From: Candidatus Limnocylindrales bacterium
GTDB lineage: Bacteria > Verrucomicrobiota > Verrucomicrobiia > Limisphaerales > UBA11358
Direction: 5' to 3'
DNA: 64,000 nucleotides
Assembly (NCBI GenBank): GCA_035604955.1
Contig: DATNHM010000027.1
Coordinates: forward strand, 2,202 to 66,201
The notes below the pieces were generated by a model. The model was not told the DNA's origin. It did not search any database and saw nothing but the letters and a program-made list of their open reading frames with translations. Made by a program: the position numbers and the translations under genes. This document shows, in pieces, positions 1,557-56,383 of this stretch; the first letter of the stretch is position 1, and each line of letters opens with the position of its first letter.

Positions 1557-3296
1557 TCAATTGACCGCGACCGGGACCGGCTCTGCTTCCCACAACACCC
1601 GATCGCACCAGTCGCCGAACCGTTCGCCGGGATTTCGTTCCTTGGCAAATCGGGCGAGCACGGGACGCAATTCGTTTTCGATATCCGGGTCCTTGACCGT
1701 TTCCTTCCACACGCGATTAAGGCGCGTGCCGGAGACATTGCCACCAAGCCAGAGCTGATAACGCCCCGGCGCTTTGCCGACGAATCCGATTTCGGCCATG
1801 TAAGGCCGCGCGCAGCCGTTCGGGCAACCGGTCGAGCGGATGATGATTTCCTCGTCACCCAGTCCCAAATCGCCGCAAAGCTTTTCGATACGGTCAACGA
1901 GTGCGGGCAATATCCGTTCGCTTTCGGCGAGCGCGAGGCCGCACGTGGGCAGGGCGGGGCAGGCCATCGCGGCGGCGTGCAGGAGGCTTGCCTGATTTTC
2001 AACCGGAATTTTGTGCGCGGCAAAAATCGAATTGATGCCGGCTTTGTCCGCATCGTTCACGTTGGCGAGAATCACATTCTGATTCGTGGTCAGGTGGAAT
2101 CCGGTTTGCGGAAATTTCTCCGCGATTTCGCGTAGTGCGATTTTTTTTTCGTTTTTTACGCGGCCGGTTTCGACAAACAGCGTGAAAAAGTTTTTCCCGT
2201 CCACGGCCTTGTGCCAGCCGAGTAAATCGGCAGTCGTTGTGAACCGGTAAGGCCTGATCGGCGCGAATTGGATGCCGGCGCGTTTCTCGACTTCGGCGCG
2301 CGTCCAATCCACGCCGCGCTCCTCGACAACGTATTTAAAGCGCGCGTGCTTGCGGTCGGTGCGGTCGCCAAAATCACGGTGTATCGTCAGCACGGCTTTG
2401 GCGACATCAATCAATTTGTCCGGCGTGATAAATCCGAGTTCGCTCGCCAGACGCGGATACGTTTCCTTGTTTCCGTGCGTGCGTCCCATGCCGCCGCCGA
2501 CGACGAGGTTGTAACCGACTAATTTGGAGTTGGGAGATAGAAGTTGGGAGTTGGGGTTTTCCCTATCTCCCATTTCCGAACTGCCATCTTCGATGATGGC
2601 GATAAAGCCCTGGTCGTTGGTGAAAATGTCGAGGTCGTTCACCGGCGGGATGACGAACGCGGTTTTGAATTTTCGCGGCAAATAAGTTTTGCCGTAAAGC
2701 GGGTCAACGAACGCCCGATTGAACGGGTCATCAATCTTGAGCTGGAAACCGTCAATCCAGATGGCGTAATAAGCGCGGGTCTGCGGCTTCAGCGCATCCG
2801 CCACCCGCACGCAATCGCGATAGACTTCGTCACGCGCCTTGGTGTAGGCGGGCGTGGGTGGCGCGAGGACGTTACGGTTCACGTCGCCGCAAGCCGCAAG
2901 CGTGGAGAGCAGGCACTCATTGATCTTTTTGACCACCAGGCGCAGGTTCGCCTTGACGACGCCGTGAAACTGAATGGTCTGGCGGGTCGTAATTCGCAGC
3001 GTGTTGTTACCATACAGCCACGCGAGTTCGTCGAACACGCGCCACTGGTTGGCGGTCATCACACCGCCGGGAATGCGGCTGCGAATCATCATGATATATT
3101 TCCGGCCGGCCGCCGAACGCAAATCGCGGTCGTCCTGCGGATAAACGCCGTGAAATTTCAGGAATTGGGCGTCGTCGCCCGAGAACGTGTCGGCGGTCGG
3201 GTCGGCCAGCCTGGACGCGATGGTGCCCGCGAGCGTGGGAATCGCTTCCTTGATCTCTTCATTGTGCGTCAACTCGCGTGGAGCCTCTGTACTCAT
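1557..3296 (-). CDS. cysI: sulfite reductase hemoprotein (siroheme/4Fe-4S; CysI/Sir type)
   Basis: 579 aa. Motifs seen: RITTRQTIQFHGV, LVVGGGMGRTHGN, and the cluster cysteines CPALPTCGLA and TGCPNGCARP. Confidence 0.93.
   Translation of the reverse strand: MSTEAPRELTHNEEIKEAIPTLAGTIASRLADPTADTFSGDDAQFLKFHGVYPQDDRDLRSAAGRKYIMMIRSRIPGGVMTANQWRVFDELAWLYGNNTLRITTRQTIQFHGVVKANLRLVVKKINECLLSTLAACGDVNRNVLAPPTPAYTKARDEVYRDCVRVADALKPQTRAYYAIWIDGFQLKIDDPFNRAFVDPLYGKTYLPRKFKTAFVIPPVNDLDIFTNDQGFIAIIEDGSSEMGDRENPNSQLLSPNSKLVGYNLVVGGGMGRTHGNKETYPRLASELGFITPDKLIDVAKAVLTIHRDFGDRTDRKHARFKYVVEERGVDWTRAEVEKRAGIQFAPIRPYRFTTTADLLGWHKAVDGKNFFTLFVETGRVKNEKKIALREIAEKFPQTGFHLTTNQNVILANVNDADKAGINSIFAAHKIPVENQASLLHAAAMACPALPTCGLALAESERILPALVDRIEKLCGDLGLGDEEIIIRSTGCPNGCARPYMAEIGFVGKAPGRYQLWLGGNVSGTRLNRVWKETVKDPDIENELRPVLARFAKERNPGERFGDWCDRVLWEAEPVPVAVN
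2527..2571. repeat. heptamer-periodic segment with a 9-bp inverted repeat, in frame inside cysI
   Basis: gggagatag (2532-2540) is the reverse complement of ctatctccc (2563-2571). The minus strand reads AACTCCC/AACTTCT/ATCTCCC/AACTCCA units. It encodes the extra peptide SSEMGDRENPNSQLLSPNS. Confidence 0.7.
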
Positions 3297-3413: not shown

Positions 3414-3857
3414 AAAGGCTGAATTCTAAAGACTGAAGGCTAAAGTGAGGTATTTCAGGCTTTGGCTTTTTTGTCAATGGTCGTAAAGATAGCGATGAGT
3501 TGTCGTGTTTCGTCAAGCAGCTCGGCCATTCGGCCGGCTGGAACGCAGCCACTATCCACGATCAATTCGAGCCAATATTCGGTTTCATCAATTTCTTTGA
3601 GACAGTCGCCTATCTTGGAAATGAACTCCGCTTTGGAACGGGCGCGGGGGGCTTCGCGATAATTTGCGCCAACCGATGTTCCGGAGCGCAAGACCTGCCG
3701 GCCGAGCACCTGTGCGACGGCGTTGTTCCCGGGCAGTTTGGAATACATATGAATGACCCGAAGCGCAAACGCCTTTGTTCGTATTTTTAAATCCTTCGCC
3801 TGTTCGTTCATATTTCTTTAGCCTTTAGCGTTCAGCCTTCAGTCTTTGCTTTTCAGG
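3414..3857. repeat. complementary heptamer arrays bracketing the four-helix-bundle gene
   Basis: aaagactgaaggct (3428-3441) is the exact reverse complement of agccttcagtcttt (3834-3847). Both arms are 7-nt periodic: (ggctgaa ttctaaa gactgaa ggctaaa) versus (ctttagc ctttagc gttcagc cttcagt ctttgct tttcagg). Confidence 0.8.
3455..3811 (-). CDS. four-helix-bundle protein (23S rRNA intervening-sequence protein family, TIGR02436-like)
   Basis: 118 aa: FALRVIHMYSKLP...LGRQVLRSGTSVGANYREAPRARSKAEFISKIGDCLKEIDETEYWLELI. This is the typical signature of the family. Confidence 0.85.
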   Translation of the reverse strand: MNEQAKDLKIRTKAFALRVIHMYSKLPGNNAVAQVLGRQVLRSGTSVGANYREAPRARSKAEFISKIGDCLKEIDETEYWLELIVDSGCVPAGRMAELLDETRQLIAIFTTIDKKAKA

Positions 3858-9100: not shown

Positions 9101-9425
9101 GTTCGGCAAAATAAAACCCCGCCCTTGCCGTGTGTAACTCTTCCTTTGAACATGTTTTGCAACATGTGGGACGGGCTGGACTGCTTTCGACTTCCAGCGA
9201 AGGCGTGTCGGCCGCAGCCCCGGCTTGGGTCCCGGGATCGTATTATTACGGTTCAAGGATTAGTTGCCTAATCACGAACAGGGCAGGGTAAATTCAACTT
9301 TTAATCAAAGAGCAATTCGCGTTTCTGACGGGTTCAATATCGCTTGAGTCGGGCATTTTCTCAAGAAAAATTCCTGTAAATATTTTGTTGCAACCGCGAA
9401 AACCGCTTGCAAACTCGTGCCGTTC

Positions 9426-23895: not shown

Positions 23896-26313
23896 ATGAA
23901 TTCGCCGTCTGCAAACCGCGCCGACCAGCCCGAGGCCAATAGCTGCCTCGCGCGCTCGGTCGTGGATACGCTGGCCGAGGAGCCGACGCTGGAAGCGGTG
24001 ACCATTGACCGCGCGCAGCGGAAAATCTCCGTGGCCACGCTGGGCCGCGCCGACATGGCCCGGCTGACGGAGCGCATCACCACCCAATTTCAGACCGCCC
24101 AGACTGCCGATGCCGGCCACACCTGCTCCCTGTTGAACGGCGAAGGCGACTGCTTTTCGTGCAACACGCCGTTGTCCGAGGACGAGCGCAAGAAAATCAC
24201 GATTCAAAACGACGGTCCGACGACCACCATTGCGCGGGTCACGTGCCCGACTGCGCCGACCTTCTGGCGCTGGCGCGACATGCCGTTTCCGAAAGTCGTC
24301 CCGCGCGACGTCGAATTTCTCGAACACGTCGGGGAGATTGACGAGTGGAAAACCCAGCTGGCCGCCGCGATTTTGTGTGGTGTGTTCGGACTGGCCGGCT
24401 TTTTCCTCGGCCGGTTTGGCCAGCCTGCCCTGTCGGTTACCAGTTTCATCATGGCCTATCTGGCCGGCGGTTTTTATCCGGCGGAACAGGTCTGGGAACG
24501 GCTGCGGAAGCGCACGATTGACGTGCATTTTCTGATGCTTTTTGTGGCCGTGGGCGCCGCTTCCATCGGCGCCTGGGCGGAAGGCGCGACGCTGTTGTTT
24601 CTGTTCTCACTCTCCGGCGCGCTGGAGCATTTCGCGCTCGGGCGCACCCAAAAGGAAATCCGCTCGCTCTTTCGCGACGCGCCCAAAGTCGCCACGGTGA
24701 TTGACGCCCACGGCAAAGAACGCGAGGTCAAGGTCGAGCTGCTCAAACCAGGCATGCGCCTGCTGATCAAACCCGGCGCGCAATTTCCCGTGGACGGCGA
24801 AATCACCAAAGGCAGCACCGCGGCGGACGAATCGAATCTGACCGGCGAAGCCACGCCGGTGAAAAAGGCCGTTGGCGACACCGGGCTGGCGGGCACCATC
24901 AACCTGTGGGGCGCGGTCGAGATGGCTGTCGTGCGGCCCGCCGCCGAAAGCGCACTGCAAAAAATCATTACGCTGATCAAGGACGCCCAGCAGCAGAAAG
25001 CGCCCGCGCAACAGTTCACTGATAAATTCAGCACGGTTTACACTTACGCTGTCATCGGGCTTTCATTCGCGATGTTTTTTGTCTGGTGGCTGGGTTTCCG
25101 GCTCGCGCCCTTTGAGTCCGCCGTCGAGTCGCACAGCGCCTTTTACCGCGCGATGACGCTGCTGGTCGTCTCATCGCCGTGCGCGCTGGTGCTTTCGATT
25201 CCGTCGGCGGTGCTGGCGGCCATCGCGTGGGGCGCGCGGCACGGCATTTTGTTCCGCGGCGGTGCCGCGGTGGAAAAGCTCGCCGAAGTGAACATCGTGG
25301 CGCTCGATAAGACCGGGACGCTCACCACCGGCGAATTGCGTGTCGAAAAAATTGAAAGTTTTCCGCCCGGACGCGAATCGGAAATCGCGCGGCTGGCCTT
25401 CTCCTTGGAACGGCTTTCGACGCATCCGCTCGCCCGCGCCATCACGCGCCACGGCAAGCAGCAGAAGCTGGAGCCGATCGAGTTTGAGCATTTTGAGTCG
25501 GTGACGGGGCAGGGCTTGCTTGCCCGGCGCGACGGTATCGAATACCGCCTCGGCGGCCGCGATTGGTTTGAGGGGCCCGGGAGCGCCGGCATCTTGCCGG
25601 CGAGTTCCAAAGACGTTTCTTCCCCGCCCGCCGGCAAGATGCCGGCGCTCCCAAACCCGGTGGACGCCGGTTTTTCCGAGGTTTGGGCCGAGGGCGGTGA
25701 TTTGGTTGGCCGCGTCATTTTGCGCGACGACATCCGTCCGCAATCGGCCGCCGTCATTCAGGAATTGCGGAATGAAGGTTTGCGCACGGTGGTTCTGACC
25801 GGCGACCGCAAGGCGACGGCCGAGCATCTGCGCGCGAAATTGAACCTCGACGACGTGCGCGCGGAATTGAAGCCGGAACAAAAGGTTGAGGCGATTCGTG
25901 CGTTGAGCGAAGACAGTTGCCGGGTGGCGATGATTGGCGACGGCGTCAACGATGCGCCGAGCCTGGCGGCGGCGCATATCGGCGTGGCGATGGGCGCGCG
26001 GGGCGCCGACGCCGCGCTCGAACAGGCGGACGTGGTGTTGATGAACGACCGGCTGGAAAATTTTCTGGCCGCATTCCGCCTGAGCCAGCGGGCGCGGCGC
26101 ATCATCCGGCAAAATCTGTTCATCTCGCTCGGCACGGTGGTGGTACTGGTGTCGTTCGCGATGCTCGGAAAAATTCCGCTGCCCATCGGCGTGGTCGGCC
26201 ACGAAGGCAGCACGGTTGTGGTGGTGATGAACAGTTTGCGATTGTTGTTTGGCGGCACACCGGGGGCCAATCATTCCAATCCCGGATCAACCCTACGCAC
26301 GCCGGGATCATAA
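23896..26313 (+). CDS. heavy-metal translocating P1B-type ATPase (SPC / HEGxT signature, P1B-4-like)
   Basis: 805 aa. Motifs seen: TGEA, DKTGTLT, GDGVNDAP, transmembrane SPC (VVSSPCALV) and HEGSTVVVV. Confidence 0.92.
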   Translation: MNSPSANRADQPEANSCLARSVVDTLAEEPTLEAVTIDRAQRKISVATLGRADMARLTERITTQFQTAQTADAGHTCSLLNGEGDCFSCNTPLSEDERKKITIQNDGPTTTIARVTCPTAPTFWRWRDMPFPKVVPRDVEFLEHVGEIDEWKTQLAAAILCGVFGLAGFFLGRFGQPALSVTSFIMAYLAGGFYPAEQVWERLRKRTIDVHFLMLFVAVGAASIGAWAEGATLLFLFSLSGALEHFALGRTQKEIRSLFRDAPKVATVIDAHGKEREVKVELLKPGMRLLIKPGAQFPVDGEITKGSTAADESNLTGEATPVKKAVGDTGLAGTINLWGAVEMAVVRPAAESALQKIITLIKDAQQQKAPAQQFTDKFSTVYTYAVIGLSFAMFFVWWLGFRLAPFESAVESHSAFYRAMTLLVVSSPCALVLSIPSAVLAAIAWGARHGILFRGGAAVEKLAEVNIVALDKTGTLTTGELRVEKIESFPPGRESEIARLAFSLERLSTHPLARAITRHGKQQKLEPIEFEHFESVTGQGLLARRDGIEYRLGGRDWFEGPGSAGILPASSKDVSSPPAGKMPALPNPVDAGFSEVWAEGGDLVGRVILRDDIRPQSAAVIQELRNEGLRTVVLTGDRKATAEHLRAKLNLDDVRAELKPEQKVEAIRALSEDSCRVAMIGDGVNDAPSLAAAHIGVAMGARGADAALEQADVVLMNDRLENFLAAFRLSQRARRIIRQNLFISLGTVVVLVSFAMLGKIPLPIGVVGHEGSTVVVVMNSLRLLFGGTPGANHSNPGSTLRTPGS
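25579..25652. repeat. perfect 24-bp inverted repeat with a 26-nt loop, in frame inside the ATPase gene
   Basis: gggagcgccggcatcttgccggcg (25579-25602) is the exact reverse complement of cgccggcaagatgccggcgctccc (25629-25652). It is translated as GSAGILPASSKDVSSPPAGKMPALP. Confidence 0.9.
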
Positions 26314-26314
26314 A

Positions 26315-26392
26315 CCTGGGAGCGCCGGCGTCTCGCTGGCAGGTTCGCAGTTCCCATTCCCAACAAGCCGGCGAGACGCCGGTCCTTCCAGG
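26315..26392. repeat. sibling palindromic element 2 nt after the ATPase stop (terminator-like)
   Basis: cctgggagcgccggcgtctcgctggc (26315-26340) pairs 22/26 with gccggcgagacgccggtccttccagg (26367-26392). It has the same 26-nt loop length and the same GGGAGCGCCGGC arm start as the 25579 element. Confidence 0.8.
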
Positions 26393-26461
26393 TGGCCGGA
26401 ACAAAGAAACTTTTCTGTTCATTCCGGTCTTGGTCGTGTTTAATCAAGGCCGGTTGAATTT

Positions 26462-35417: not shown

Positions 35418-35490
35418 GTAGGAGACGACGTAAGGAGTCTCTAACTGAAAATCCGGAATCAAGAATGAGACTCGTAACCTCGTCTCCTAC
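35418..35490. repeat. GTAGG...CCTAC-bracketed double-hairpin element (copy B)
   Basis: gagac-gacgtaagga-gtctc (35422-35441), a 25-nt spacer, then gagac-tcgtaacctc-gtctc (35467-35486). The two arms also pair with each other at 18/21. Confidence 0.85.
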
Positions 35491-41573: not shown

Positions 41574-41828
41574 ATGCAGGCGTTTTTGGAATACGTCATC
41601 AAGGGACTGGTGCAACATCCCGAGGCGGTTTCCATTACGCCGGTGGAACGCGAGGGCATGACGGTATACGAGCTGCGCCTGGATCAGCAGGACGTCGGCA
41701 AAATTATCGGCCGGCACGGTGTGACGATCAACGCCATCCGATCCTTGTTGCTGGCCGGCAGCGCCCGCAAGGGCCTGCGTTGTTCGGTGGAAATCGTCGA
41801 GGACAAACCGGCGGGTCGCAGTCAGTAG
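41574..41828 (+). CDS. KH-domain RNA-binding protein (UPF0109/YlqC family)
   Basis: The ATG at 41574 and the GKIIGRHGVTINAIRSL GxxG KH motif. It occupies the canonical position after rpsP. Confidence 0.85.
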   Translation: MQAFLEYVIKGLVQHPEAVSITPVEREGMTVYELRLDQQDVGKIIGRHGVTINAIRSLLLAGSARKGLRCSVEIVEDKPAGRSQ

Positions 41829-41902
41829 TGGGCAGTCAGTAGTCCGTAGCAAAACGACTCGCGGGCAATTGCCACTGACTATTAACTACTGACTACTGAC
41901 TG
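41819..41902. repeat. AGTCAGT-heptamer hairpin filling the KH-trmD spacer
   Basis: cagtcagtagt (41819-41829) pairs with actactgactg (41892-41902). Inner repeats pair imperfectly. The apex palindrome is ggcaattgcc (41864-41873). The left arm overlaps the KH stop and the right arm abuts the trmD GTG. Confidence 0.8.
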
Positions 41903-42571
41903 GTGAAAATTGACGTGCTCACATTGTTTCCGGCGATGTTCGCCGGGCCGCTCGATGAAAGCATCATCCAGCGCGCGCGGGCCGGCGGATTGCTGGATGT
42001 GAAGATTCACCAGCTCCGTGACTGGGCGCATGACCGGCACAAAACGGTGGATGACCGTCCGTTTGGCGGCGGGCCGGGGATGTTGCTGAAGCCCGAACCG
42101 CTCTTTGAAGCGATTGAAGATTTGCGGCGCAAAAGCACGCGCGTGATTTTGTTGTCGCCGGCCGGCCGGAAATTTGATCAGGCCATCGCGCGCGAACTGG
42201 CTGGACAAAAACATCTGTTGCTGGTCACCGGGCATTACGAAGGTTTTGACGAGCGCGTGCGGGAAAAACTGGCCGACGACGAGTTGTCCATCGGCGACTA
42301 CGTGTTGACCAACGGCGCGCTGCCCGCAATGGTGGTGATCGACGCGGTGACCCGGTTGTTGCCCGGCGTGCTGGGCGACGATGAAAGTTCGCGCGACGAG
42401 TCGTTCAGCGCCGGATTGCTGGAATATCCGCAATACACACGGCCGGCGGAATTTCGCGGGATGAAAGTTCCCGGGATGTTGTTGTCCGGCAACCACGCTG
42501 AAATTAAAAAGTGGCGCGCAGAGCAGGCGAAGTTGCGGACGAAATGGCAGCGGCCGGATTTGCTGAAATAG
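41903..42571 (+). CDS. trmD: tRNA (guanine37-N1)-methyltransferase
   Basis: GTG start. Sequence reads [13 protein letters not shown]...[12 protein letters not shown]...[10 protein letters not shown]...[10 protein letters not shown]. Confidence 0.96.
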
Positions 42572-42650
42572 TTTTTAATTTTTAGTTTTGAATTTTGAAT
42601 TCGAAACGCGGCAATTAAAAATTAAGAATTAAAAATTTAAAATTGATTTT
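42572..42650. repeat. AT-rich heptamer hairpin filling the trmD-rplS spacer
   Basis: The left units tttttaa tttttag ttttgaa ttttgaa face the right units aattaaa aattaag aattaaa aatttaa. Complementarity is imperfect. Confidence 0.65.
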
Positions 42651-56263: not shown

Positions 56264-56361
56264 AACATTCAACATTCAACATCGAACTTCGAACATCAAA
56301 TGACTCCATTCGCCCGTCACTCTGGTTGGGCGTTGAATGTTGAATGTTGAATGTTGAATGT
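56264..56361. repeat. complementary heptamer arrays (AACATTC x5 versus GTTGAAT x4) forming a long hairpin in the pyrK-pyrD spacer
   Basis: attcaac attcaac atcgaac ttcgaac (56267-56294) faces gttgaat x4 (56332-56359). The loop is about 37 nt. Confidence 0.85.
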
Positions 56362-56383
56362 TTTCCACCCATAAATTGAAATC

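Follow-up and report, generated by a model that had tools for sequence, protein, structure and literature searches.

A stretch of 64,000 nucleotides of contig DATNHM010000027.1 (Verrucomicrobiota; hereafter the window, meaning the whole stretch that was analysed) contains a palindrome at 25579-25652 that is translated in frame within an open reading frame (ORF) for a heavy-metal P-type ATPase (23896-26313, plus strand, 805 aa). We interpret this palindrome as a REPIN, that is, a hairpin-forming doublet of repetitive extragenic palindromic (REP) units, which belongs to a family associated with REP-associated tyrosine transposases (RAYTs) and lies in frame in a surface loop of an otherwise intact enzyme. 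The probability that we attach to this interpretation is about 0.8.

A repeat search returned two arms of 24 nt each at 25579-25602 and 25629-25652, 100% complementary and separated by 26 nt, exactly as stated in the original prediction, which had been made by reading the DNA without database searches; the smaller palindrome GCCGGCA-TCT-TGCCGGC that it had described inside each arm is likewise present. The left REP unit (25577-25602, plus strand) consists of the tag CC, GGGAGC, the mini-hairpin GCCGGC-ATCTT-GCCGGC and a final G, has no mismatch to the REP core and reads (P)GSAGILPA. It is followed by a spacer of 26 nt (25603-25628, plus strand), which forms the loop and reads SSKDVSSP(P), and by the inverted right unit (25629-25654, minus strand), a perfect complement of the left unit that reads (P)AGKMPALP on the plus strand. 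The translation of the ORF across the palindrome runs ...YRLGGRDWFEGPGSAGILPASSKDVSSPPAGKMPALPNPVDAGFSEVWAEGGDLVGRVILRD... / ...LGGRDWFEGPGSAGILPASSKDVSSPPAGKMPALPNPVDAGFSEVW.... As RNA, the palindrome folds with -66.4 kcal/mol (z -7.7) on the plus strand and -77.2 kcal/mol (z -10.7) on the minus strand, a stability matched by none of 200 shuffled sequences. Each 24-nt arm is, as expected of a REP (20-40 nt), a short imperfect palindrome with a stem-loop of its own, the two inverted units and their spacer fold as one hairpin, and most of the features that define REPINs and RAYT-associated REPs are found in the element or its family, but not the canonical tag. The 74 nt do encode about 25 residues, the number predicted to have been added, but relative to orthologues that lack the element only 16 are gained on balance (45 versus 29 residues between GGRDW and FSEVW), from which it follows that a native segment was replaced by the element rather than simply added to. 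No direct duplication was present at the flanks of the palindrome (...GAGGGGCC / element / AAACCCGG...).

The family to which the element belongs was delimited by a scan with the 23-mer of the arm (GGGAGCGCCGGCRTCTYGCYGGC, three degenerate positions) in one genome per species, and the 23-mer occurred in at least 119 genome stretches, mostly from Verrucomicrobiota, with other phyla represented too. Among the matches listed, the consensus unit is C[T/C]GG-GAGC plus GCCGGC-N5-GCCGGC and 130 arms from 119 loci share this architecture; CT or CC precedes GGGAGC in 115 of these 130 arms (tag CTGG in 82, CCGG in 33), and an inverted partner accompanies 68 of 127 elements, in which the spacer separating the 23-nt REP cores has a median of 25 nt. 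The spacer sequences vary from copy to copy within the family. REPINs have been defined as two conserved inverted units with a less conserved spacer, which together form one long hairpin (PMC3116915), and we identify the element as a REPIN because its inverted conserved units, variable spacer and long hairpin fit this anatomy.

A RAYT gene flanked by REPs of the same family was found in three related loci. In L058, a Y1_Tnp protein (PF01797, E 4e-12) has REPs of the window family on both sides, while L063, a 1.47-Mb Verrucomicrobiae contig, encodes a RAYT 51% identical to the L058 protein with flanking REPINs at 2738-2814 and 3586-3662. The RAYT of L195 is 75% identical to that of L063, and its REPINs, at ~1295-1372 (immediately upstream) and 2150-2258 (overlapping the RAYT 3' end), are of the ATCTT subtype, as in the window. 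Homologues of the L058, L063 and L195 proteins have been named "REP element-mobilizing transposase RayT" by JGI.

The host gene matches the heavy-metal P-type ATPase model TIGR01525 with 571 bits and the Pfam domains E1-E2_ATPase and Hydrolase, and its best solved relative is 7qbz (E 1.8e-108). The motifs DKTGT (D471-T475), TGD (T635-D637), GDGVNDAP (G681-P688), SPC (S427-C429), HEGST (H769-T773) and HP are invariant among 43 homologues; SPC in the fourth core transmembrane helix together with HEGxT in the sixth places the enzyme in subgroup P1B-4. Outside the element, synonymous versus amino-acid codon differences between the window and three relatives number 175:77, 109:34 and 104:38. Because the catalytic motifs are invariant and synonymous changes far outnumber amino-acid changes, the gene appears functional and not a pseudogene; judged by its sequence, it is intact and under purifying selection. 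The statement in the original prediction that a palindrome of mobile-element type is translated inside an intact gene was borne out. By its close homologues and its neighbouring genes, the window belongs to Verrucomicrobiota of peat and soil metagenomes. Residues 1-150 of the ATPase (window 23896-24350) form a conserved N-terminal region with the invariant cysteines C17, C77, C86, C89 and C117; this region matched no Pfam entry and is possibly a domain that binds metal.

To describe the insertion site, 64 orthologous loci were sampled from metagenome contigs by a conserved coding-flank pattern, blind to the state of the site. The affected loop of the nucleotide-binding domain (N-domain) spans 25-80 residues in these loci, and the LGGRDW-FSEVW stretch is likewise strongly length-variable among 120 close homologues. 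A short native form (...GRHADAIARAPAT...) is found in 26 of the 64 loci and another short form in 2, so that element-free orthologues, for which the original prediction had proposed to look, do exist. In 13 loci a small palindrome (GGAGCGCCG...CGGCGCTCC, peptide LERR...IGAP) surrounds the short form. REPINs of the window family occupy the site in 8 loci, longer REP-like palindromes (e.g. CCGGCACGGCGC...GCGCCGTGCCGG) in 9, and an unrelated hairpin (GTTGGAGTTCA...TGAACTCCAAC, peptide GVQASAC..TLKRELQ) in 6. Palindromic inserts of at least three families, some of them nested, are thereby present in 23 of the 64 sampled orthologues, about a third. The inner element of most longer forms starts 1-3 nt after GGA(G/A)CGCCGG, and the insertion junction of the three families lies directly after GGAGCGCCGG; this common starting position shows that three families landed at the same junction, some of the inserts nested in remnants of an older REP-like palindrome. 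Other inserts are framed by outer LERR...IGAP arms, which are missing from the window clade. In 7qbz, the variable loop corresponds by alignment to the residues ahead of the final N-domain helix, and the short forms match the length of 7qbz there. The length variation, together with short forms that fit 7qbz, marks the loop as permissive and as a hot spot for insertions, and the comparison of orthologous sequences shows this N-domain loop to be a landing pad for palindromic inserts.

An AlphaFold2 model, built from 43 close homologues, served only to compare the insert locally with the N-domain next to it. Residues 561-583 of the insert were predicted as coil with a predicted local distance difference test (pLDDT) score below 50, and the neighbouring N-domain scored 67-83. 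Most probably the inserted residues form a loop at the surface that is disordered and passive, as the model weakly indicates.

Coding copies of the family are not limited to the ATPase. Among the matches listed, 7 of 127 elements in other genomes lie in frame in a continuing, domain-bearing ORF (six tested against Pfam and L034 inferred); many of the remaining elements sit in no long ORF, a classification that is partial. The REPIN of L080 (3088-3153 of CAVPSH010000001.1, ATCTT subtype), from a sister genome, is in frame (GSAGILPAGAQFAKRRQDAGAP) in a UvrD/AddA-like helicase-nuclease, where it falls between two parts of the UvrD-helicase domain; L080 shares a 2.24-Mb contig with the closest complete ATPase orthologue of the window. 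In-frame copies within Pfam domain matches were found in a xanthine-dehydrogenase-type protein (L011), MetH (L014), a radical-SAM CofH/MqnC-type enzyme (L028) and a methyltransferase (L052), and an in-frame single unit in GyrA (L118). L034, which was outside the Pfam-scanned set, was inferred to be in frame from flanking peptides that are the same as those of L028, and is excluded from the following count. The frame GSAG(I/V)(L/S/P)PA is used in seven genes, namely the window ATPase, L080, L011, L014, L028, L052 and L118. The exception is L070, a putative coding copy that uses the GAPAS frame within a 1196-codon open frame with MMPL and acyltransferase matches. Seven of eight in-frame copies thus share one of three frames (binomial probability ~0.003). 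The REP arms are free of stop codons in all six reading frames, and we attribute the bias towards the GSAG frame to a filter for harmless, small-residue peptides. Partnerless single 23-mer matches in high-GC Actinomycetota genes (ComEC in L077, and L085) were excluded as insertions, being possible chance matches.

The age of the copy in the ATPase gene was assessed from its close relatives. The in-gene elements of the window, L120 and L123 are identical. In L124, whose gene is 93% identical to that of the window at the nucleotide level, one arm change produces a G-U pair; in L122 (87%), one arm change produces U-G and two changes lie in the spacer; in L121 (93%), four arm changes are non-compensated. 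Since the same copy with the same spacer is shared with L122 at 87% gene-wide identity, the insertion is older than ~13% nucleotide divergence, and the recent insertion offered as one explanation in the original prediction is not supported. Between the window and L122, the element differs at 3 of 74 positions, compared with 295 of 2281 elsewhere in the gene (p 0.02) and 37 of 300 in the 150-nt flanks. None of its codons shows a synonymous-only change, where 5.8 were expected (p 0.0014), and all three changes alter an amino acid; over three comparisons, the synonymous:non-synonymous counts in the element are 0:3, 1:1 and 2:4. The absence of synonymous-only changes in L122, with amino acids altered, argues for constraint on the DNA or RNA sequence and not on the peptide. 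Support for such nucleotide-level constraint is modest and lineage-dependent, coming from small numbers in one lineage and being contradicted by L121. Selection on structure, the other explanation originally offered, agrees with the frozen synonymous sites of one lineage but not with the non-compensated decay in another, and non-selective mechanisms could have had the same outcome. Among wobble pairs, 6 cells fit a sense-strand G-U and 8 fit the antisense strand only; this lack of strand bias speaks against an mRNA-specific constraint and fits a process at the DNA level, and selection on the sense-strand RNA was rejected for want of wobble asymmetry.

The deeper history of the site is harder to read. 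The arms of REPINs in distant orthologues are 96-98% identical to those of the window, and their spacers 27-58%. A ...KD[VI]S... motif noticed by eye had suggested that the spacers of distant site copies are homologous, a candidate that was dropped because the alignment scores were within the unrelated background; a single ancient insertion is consequently unsupported. In a distance tree of 121 proteins, the states of the site are interleaved. Along the ATPase gene, the nearest relative in 150-nt windows shifts from L122 to L129 and then to L125, which indicates recombination among lineages. Given the interleaved states and this mosaic in sliding windows, the tree was set aside as a source of history, which it cannot settle for a gene made mosaic by recombination. 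A single old insertion may account for the copies at the site, and so may repeated hits on a hot spot.

The second copy in the window, which the original prediction had noticed next to the ATPase gene, is real and starts 2 nt past the stop codon that ends at 26313. The repeat search gave arms at 26314-26345 and 26362-26393 (32 nt, 81% complementary, 16 nt apart); in REP register, its 24-nt arms have 24 nt between them, not the 26 nt that had been read. It is an imperfect REPIN of the GTCTC subtype (26316-26391), with REP cores at 26318-26340 (plus strand) and 26367-26389 (minus strand), and folds with -57.2 kcal/mol (z -6.3). The 12-mer GGGAGCGCCGGC was not enriched in the 64-kb window beyond these two elements (3 matches versus 1.34 expected), and neither of them matched when the entire window was compared with Rfam at gathering thresholds, which yielded a 6S RNA as the sole match. 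The sibling REPIN is found only in the window, L120 and L123; a different palindromic element occupies the same intergenic spot in L124, L121 and L122. The ATPase of this latter clade has 793 aa, compared with 805 aa in the window, and the 12 missing residues are explained by a 2-nt indel near 26262 that extends the frame in the window lineage; alignment of the 3' ends places the resulting C-terminal extension at 26263-26313 (plus strand), up to the sibling REPIN. The suggestion that the sibling looks like a terminator is weak: no T-run follows it, and a terminator scan did not return it. The same scan reported a separate terminator-like hairpin with a T-rich tail at 26424-26453 (plus strand), which is conserved in L121, L123 and L124 and which, if either stops transcription, would be the likelier of the two. 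The sibling is an ordinary extragenic member of the same REP family in the usual position, REPs being typically found within a few bases of gene 3' ends (PMC3733652).

We propose that a RAYT, i.e. a Y1/HUH transposase of the IS200 type, may have moved the REPIN as single-stranded DNA into the ATPase gene. In E. coli, TnpA-REP needs single-stranded DNA and the 5' tag, binds the REP hairpin and cuts at C|T (PMC3333891), and by analogy the CT or CC before the REP unit would mark the cleavage site. The landing place would have been the N-domain stretch that holds a short, length-variable segment in relatives, and the insertion has preserved the frame and is tolerated, its arms encoding small flexible residues (GSAGILPA ... 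AGKMPALP). The perfection of the arms in spite of the old insertion is attributed to maintenance of the palindrome at the nucleotide level. This upkeep might come from conversion by other copies, from selection as a RAYT substrate, or from template switching during replication, in which one arm of a quasipalindrome is corrected against the other (PMC7202029).

Several observations weigh against the interpretation as a RAYT-associated REPIN in a surface loop, or against parts of it. A tblastn search of the 64-kb window found no RAYT, and the REP family has only two copies there; the family is putatively mobile, by analogy with E. coli. Instead of the conserved tetranucleotide GTAG (or GTRG/GYAG), the 5' tag of the family is CYGG, which differs from GTAG/GTGG at position 1; degenerate tags are known, that of GTAG-20 in Opitutus terrae being mostly GTGG (PMC3733652). 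Modelling of the N-domain, a check that had been put forward with the original prediction, did return coil for the insert, but the model as a whole is poor (mean pLDDT 48, pTM 0.29). Maintenance of the palindrome is not uniform, since the decaying element of L121 evolves at the gene-average rate. Among ten copies at the ATPase site, 92.5% of cells pair and 4 pairs have changed on both sides, above shuffled and slid controls; these paired changes could stem from different subfamily members that inserted independently, and not from changes within one resident copy. Alignment scores between the spacers of the window and of distant-orthologue REPINs are 2-7, within the range of unrelated spacers (mean 3.4, maximum 7).

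These last points lead to an alternative that is quite possible although we lean slightly away from it, namely that the window clade acquired its copy separately and comparatively late, at a REP-derived hot spot that one family has struck repeatedly, and not by descent from the REPINs found there in distant orthologues. Spacers across the five REPIN groups at the site are no more alike than unrelated ones, at least three different families have inserted at the one junction after GGAGCGCCGG, and the window clade lies next to element-free forms in the distance tree. On the other hand, a spacer of 26 nt would be unrecognisable anyway at ~60% neutral identity, the recombination mosaic prevents the tree from settling the history, and the missing outer LERR...IGAP arms fit either course of events. 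It is quite unlikely, in our estimation, that the hairpin has been domesticated and kept for a function within the ATPase gene, such as an mRNA structure at which ribosomes pause between the N- and P-domains, control of how the mRNA decays or is processed, or a protein-bound DNA site. The greater conservation of the element than of its flanks and the rest of the gene in L122, its missing synonymous-only changes, its very stable hairpin and the contrast between conserved arms and divergent spacers in distant orthologues would all suit such a function, but the wobble pairs show none of the strand bias that an mRNA-specific constraint would leave, the stem of L121 is decaying, and other lineages carry different, unrelated palindromes at that position. 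Moreover, the pump does not need the element, which is absent from 26 of the 64 orthologues and reduced to a short remnant in 13 more.

That the 25 residues are themselves the selected feature, as a flexible Pro/Gly/Ser linker or a docking peptide, with the palindromic DNA incidental, seems very improbable. The purifying selection on the gene and the common frame of seven out of eight validated in-frame copies could be cited in its favour, but amino-acid changes in the element equal or exceed synonymous ones, the reverse of the ratios elsewhere in the gene; spacer peptides differ freely between lineages, many orthologues do without the peptide, and the frame bias is expected from a filter against harmful peptides. 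Local duplication of the hairpin or terminator at the 3' end of the gene into its coding part, or the reverse, would account for the occurrence of only two copies in 64 kb, 740 bp apart; we give it practically no credence, for the two belong to different subtypes (ATCTT/AAGAT versus GTCTC/GAGAC) with arms only 81% alike, copies of the family are scattered over more than 100 genomes, and L124, L121 and L122 carry the in-gene copy without the 3' copy, having another element there. The existence of relatives with one copy and not the other rules this duplication out. An extension of the RAYT-associated REPIN interpretation, which we regard as speculative and on balance unlikely, holds that the coding copy is still a live REPIN whose arms are kept as RAYT substrate, that the ATPase loop reveals a target rule, and that the cross-phylum unit implies horizontal movement or strong constraint. 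If so, upkeep as a RAYT substrate would explain the frozen synonymous sites within the gene, and the target rule would be insertion directly behind GGAGCGCCGG, within or beside a REP-like hairpin that was already there. A near-identical REP unit across phyla, with RAYTs only 51% identical, would then conflict with the lineage-specific, vertically inherited REPINs that published accounts describe; the occurrence of the window-family 23-mer in several phyla already sets it apart from the REPINs of those accounts.

Among known systems, the closest are the REP/REPIN-RAYT systems of Pseudomonas fluorescens SBW25 (GI-GIII) and E. coli (REP/BIME, bacterial interspersed mosaic elements, with TnpA-REP). 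The window family shares with them a short 5' tag followed by a GC-rich imperfect palindrome, an arrangement mostly in inverted doublets with a less conserved spacer and a long hairpin, copies that flank a Y1/HUH RAYT gene, and extragenic copies near gene 3' ends. The GAGC after the tag also resembles Pseudomonas REPs (GT[AG]GGAGC...). It differs from these systems in its tag, C[T/C]GG versus GTAG/GTRG, and in the position of the window copy inside a coding sequence. In-frame REP monomers and dimers of 20-30 aa were described in 2013, in largest number in the verrucomicrobium Opitutus terrae, in hosts that include UvrD-type helicases, and neutral insertion in linkers or loops was suggested (Di Nocera et al., PMC3733652). 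The copies reported here resemble these GTAG/CGTC REPs (especially GTAG-17 to -20 of Opitutus terrae) in adding ~20-30 residues to otherwise normal proteins and in sharing a UvrD-type host, the sister genome having its window-family copy in a UvrD-like gene. The peptides, however, are different (GTGVPPV, VGPALAAG and GRDARAT there, GSAGILPA/AGKMPALP here), and the study has no ATPase host in its supplementary table and describes neither an orthologous site used by several families nor nested inserts (PMC3733652).

The comparison with Rickettsia palindromic elements (RPEs) made in the original prediction is apt, in that these too are palindromic repeats in frame in functional, translated genes, although we liken them by description only and a REPIN of a RAYT-associated family is the more precise name. 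RPE-1 elements differ as longer palindromic insertions, and the host here is a verrucomicrobium; RPEs are not known outside Rickettsia, nor with a RAYT linked to them. Transposable elements of the miniature inverted-repeat class (MITEs), such as Correia/NEMIS and the cyanobacterial Nezha, are also small non-autonomous repeats that may insert into genes without a shift of frame. Their terminal inverted repeats match those of an insertion sequence, and they make target-site duplications. The window copy, unlike MITEs, has no flanking duplication, and the enzyme linked to its family is a Y1 transposase. Coding palindromes in Nematomorpha mitochondria are perfect inverted repeats in protein-coding genes as well, but they are mitochondrial, reach 284 bp and do not form a dispersed REP family (PMC6649704).

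Since translated REP dimers in Verrucomicrobia have already been published, the coding REPIN of the window is a known kind of oddity. What is new, as far as the literature consulted shows, is that inserts of several families, nested ones included, sit at a single orthologous coding site in a third of the sampled relatives, that the surviving coding copies share one reading frame, and that the REP unit is nearly identical across several phyla. A selfish palindrome can, it seems, join a working enzyme without destroying it, its survival being filtered by a permissive loop, a preserved frame and the use, among three frames, of the one whose residues are small and flexible. The orthologue series, with element-free forms at one end, then a short remnant, then nested palindromes and REPINs from several families, offers a time course from nature in which REP-type elements are gained, become nested, decay and are lost at one coding site, and could be used for studying target choice and persistence of REPINs. 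In predicted proteins of soil and peat metagenomes, the peptides GSAGILPA, AGKMPALP, RRQDAGAP and WERRHLAG mark translated REP DNA, mostly in spurious ORFs and in a few cases in real in-frame insertions.

Some members of the family are arranged in other ways. At 3476-3670 of L074 (a Myxococcales metagenome-assembled genome, MAG), 97-nt tandem direct repeats each contain the REP 23-mer, unlike the inverted doublets. In seven loci of one Obscuribacterales MAG (L083, L100, L048, L072, L075, L087 and L090), the 23-mer is preceded by GGTTCGATCCC, which resembles a tRNA T-loop, and in L083 and L100 these copies form tandem arrays. A likeness to tRNA, in which the 5' part of the REP would correspond to a D-arm and the Obscuribacterales copies follow a GGTTCGATCC motif, was considered and rejected, ARAGORN having found no tRNA there. 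The REPIN spacers of L025 (4557-4680) and L029 (7194-7300) hold other palindromic elements nested within them, that of L025 being the hairpin GTTGGAGTTCA...TGAACTCCAAC, which is also present in the ATPase loop of some orthologues.

Elsewhere in the window, the 6S RNA lies at 9112-9292 on the minus strand (Rfam RF00013, 68 bits, E 2.7e-11). Four more intergenic palindromes were observed at 56264-56362, 41819-41906, 42569-42631 and 35418-35490; three of them are inverted arrays of short tandem units, one of AACATTC heptamers, one of CAGTCAGTAGT units and one AT-rich, and heptamer arrays similar to that of the window flank REPINs in other loci. A further inverted repeat, TTTGGAGTTGGGAGATAG / CTATCTCCCATTTCCGAA, is located at 2523-2580 within a crude predicted ORF (1557-3296, minus strand).

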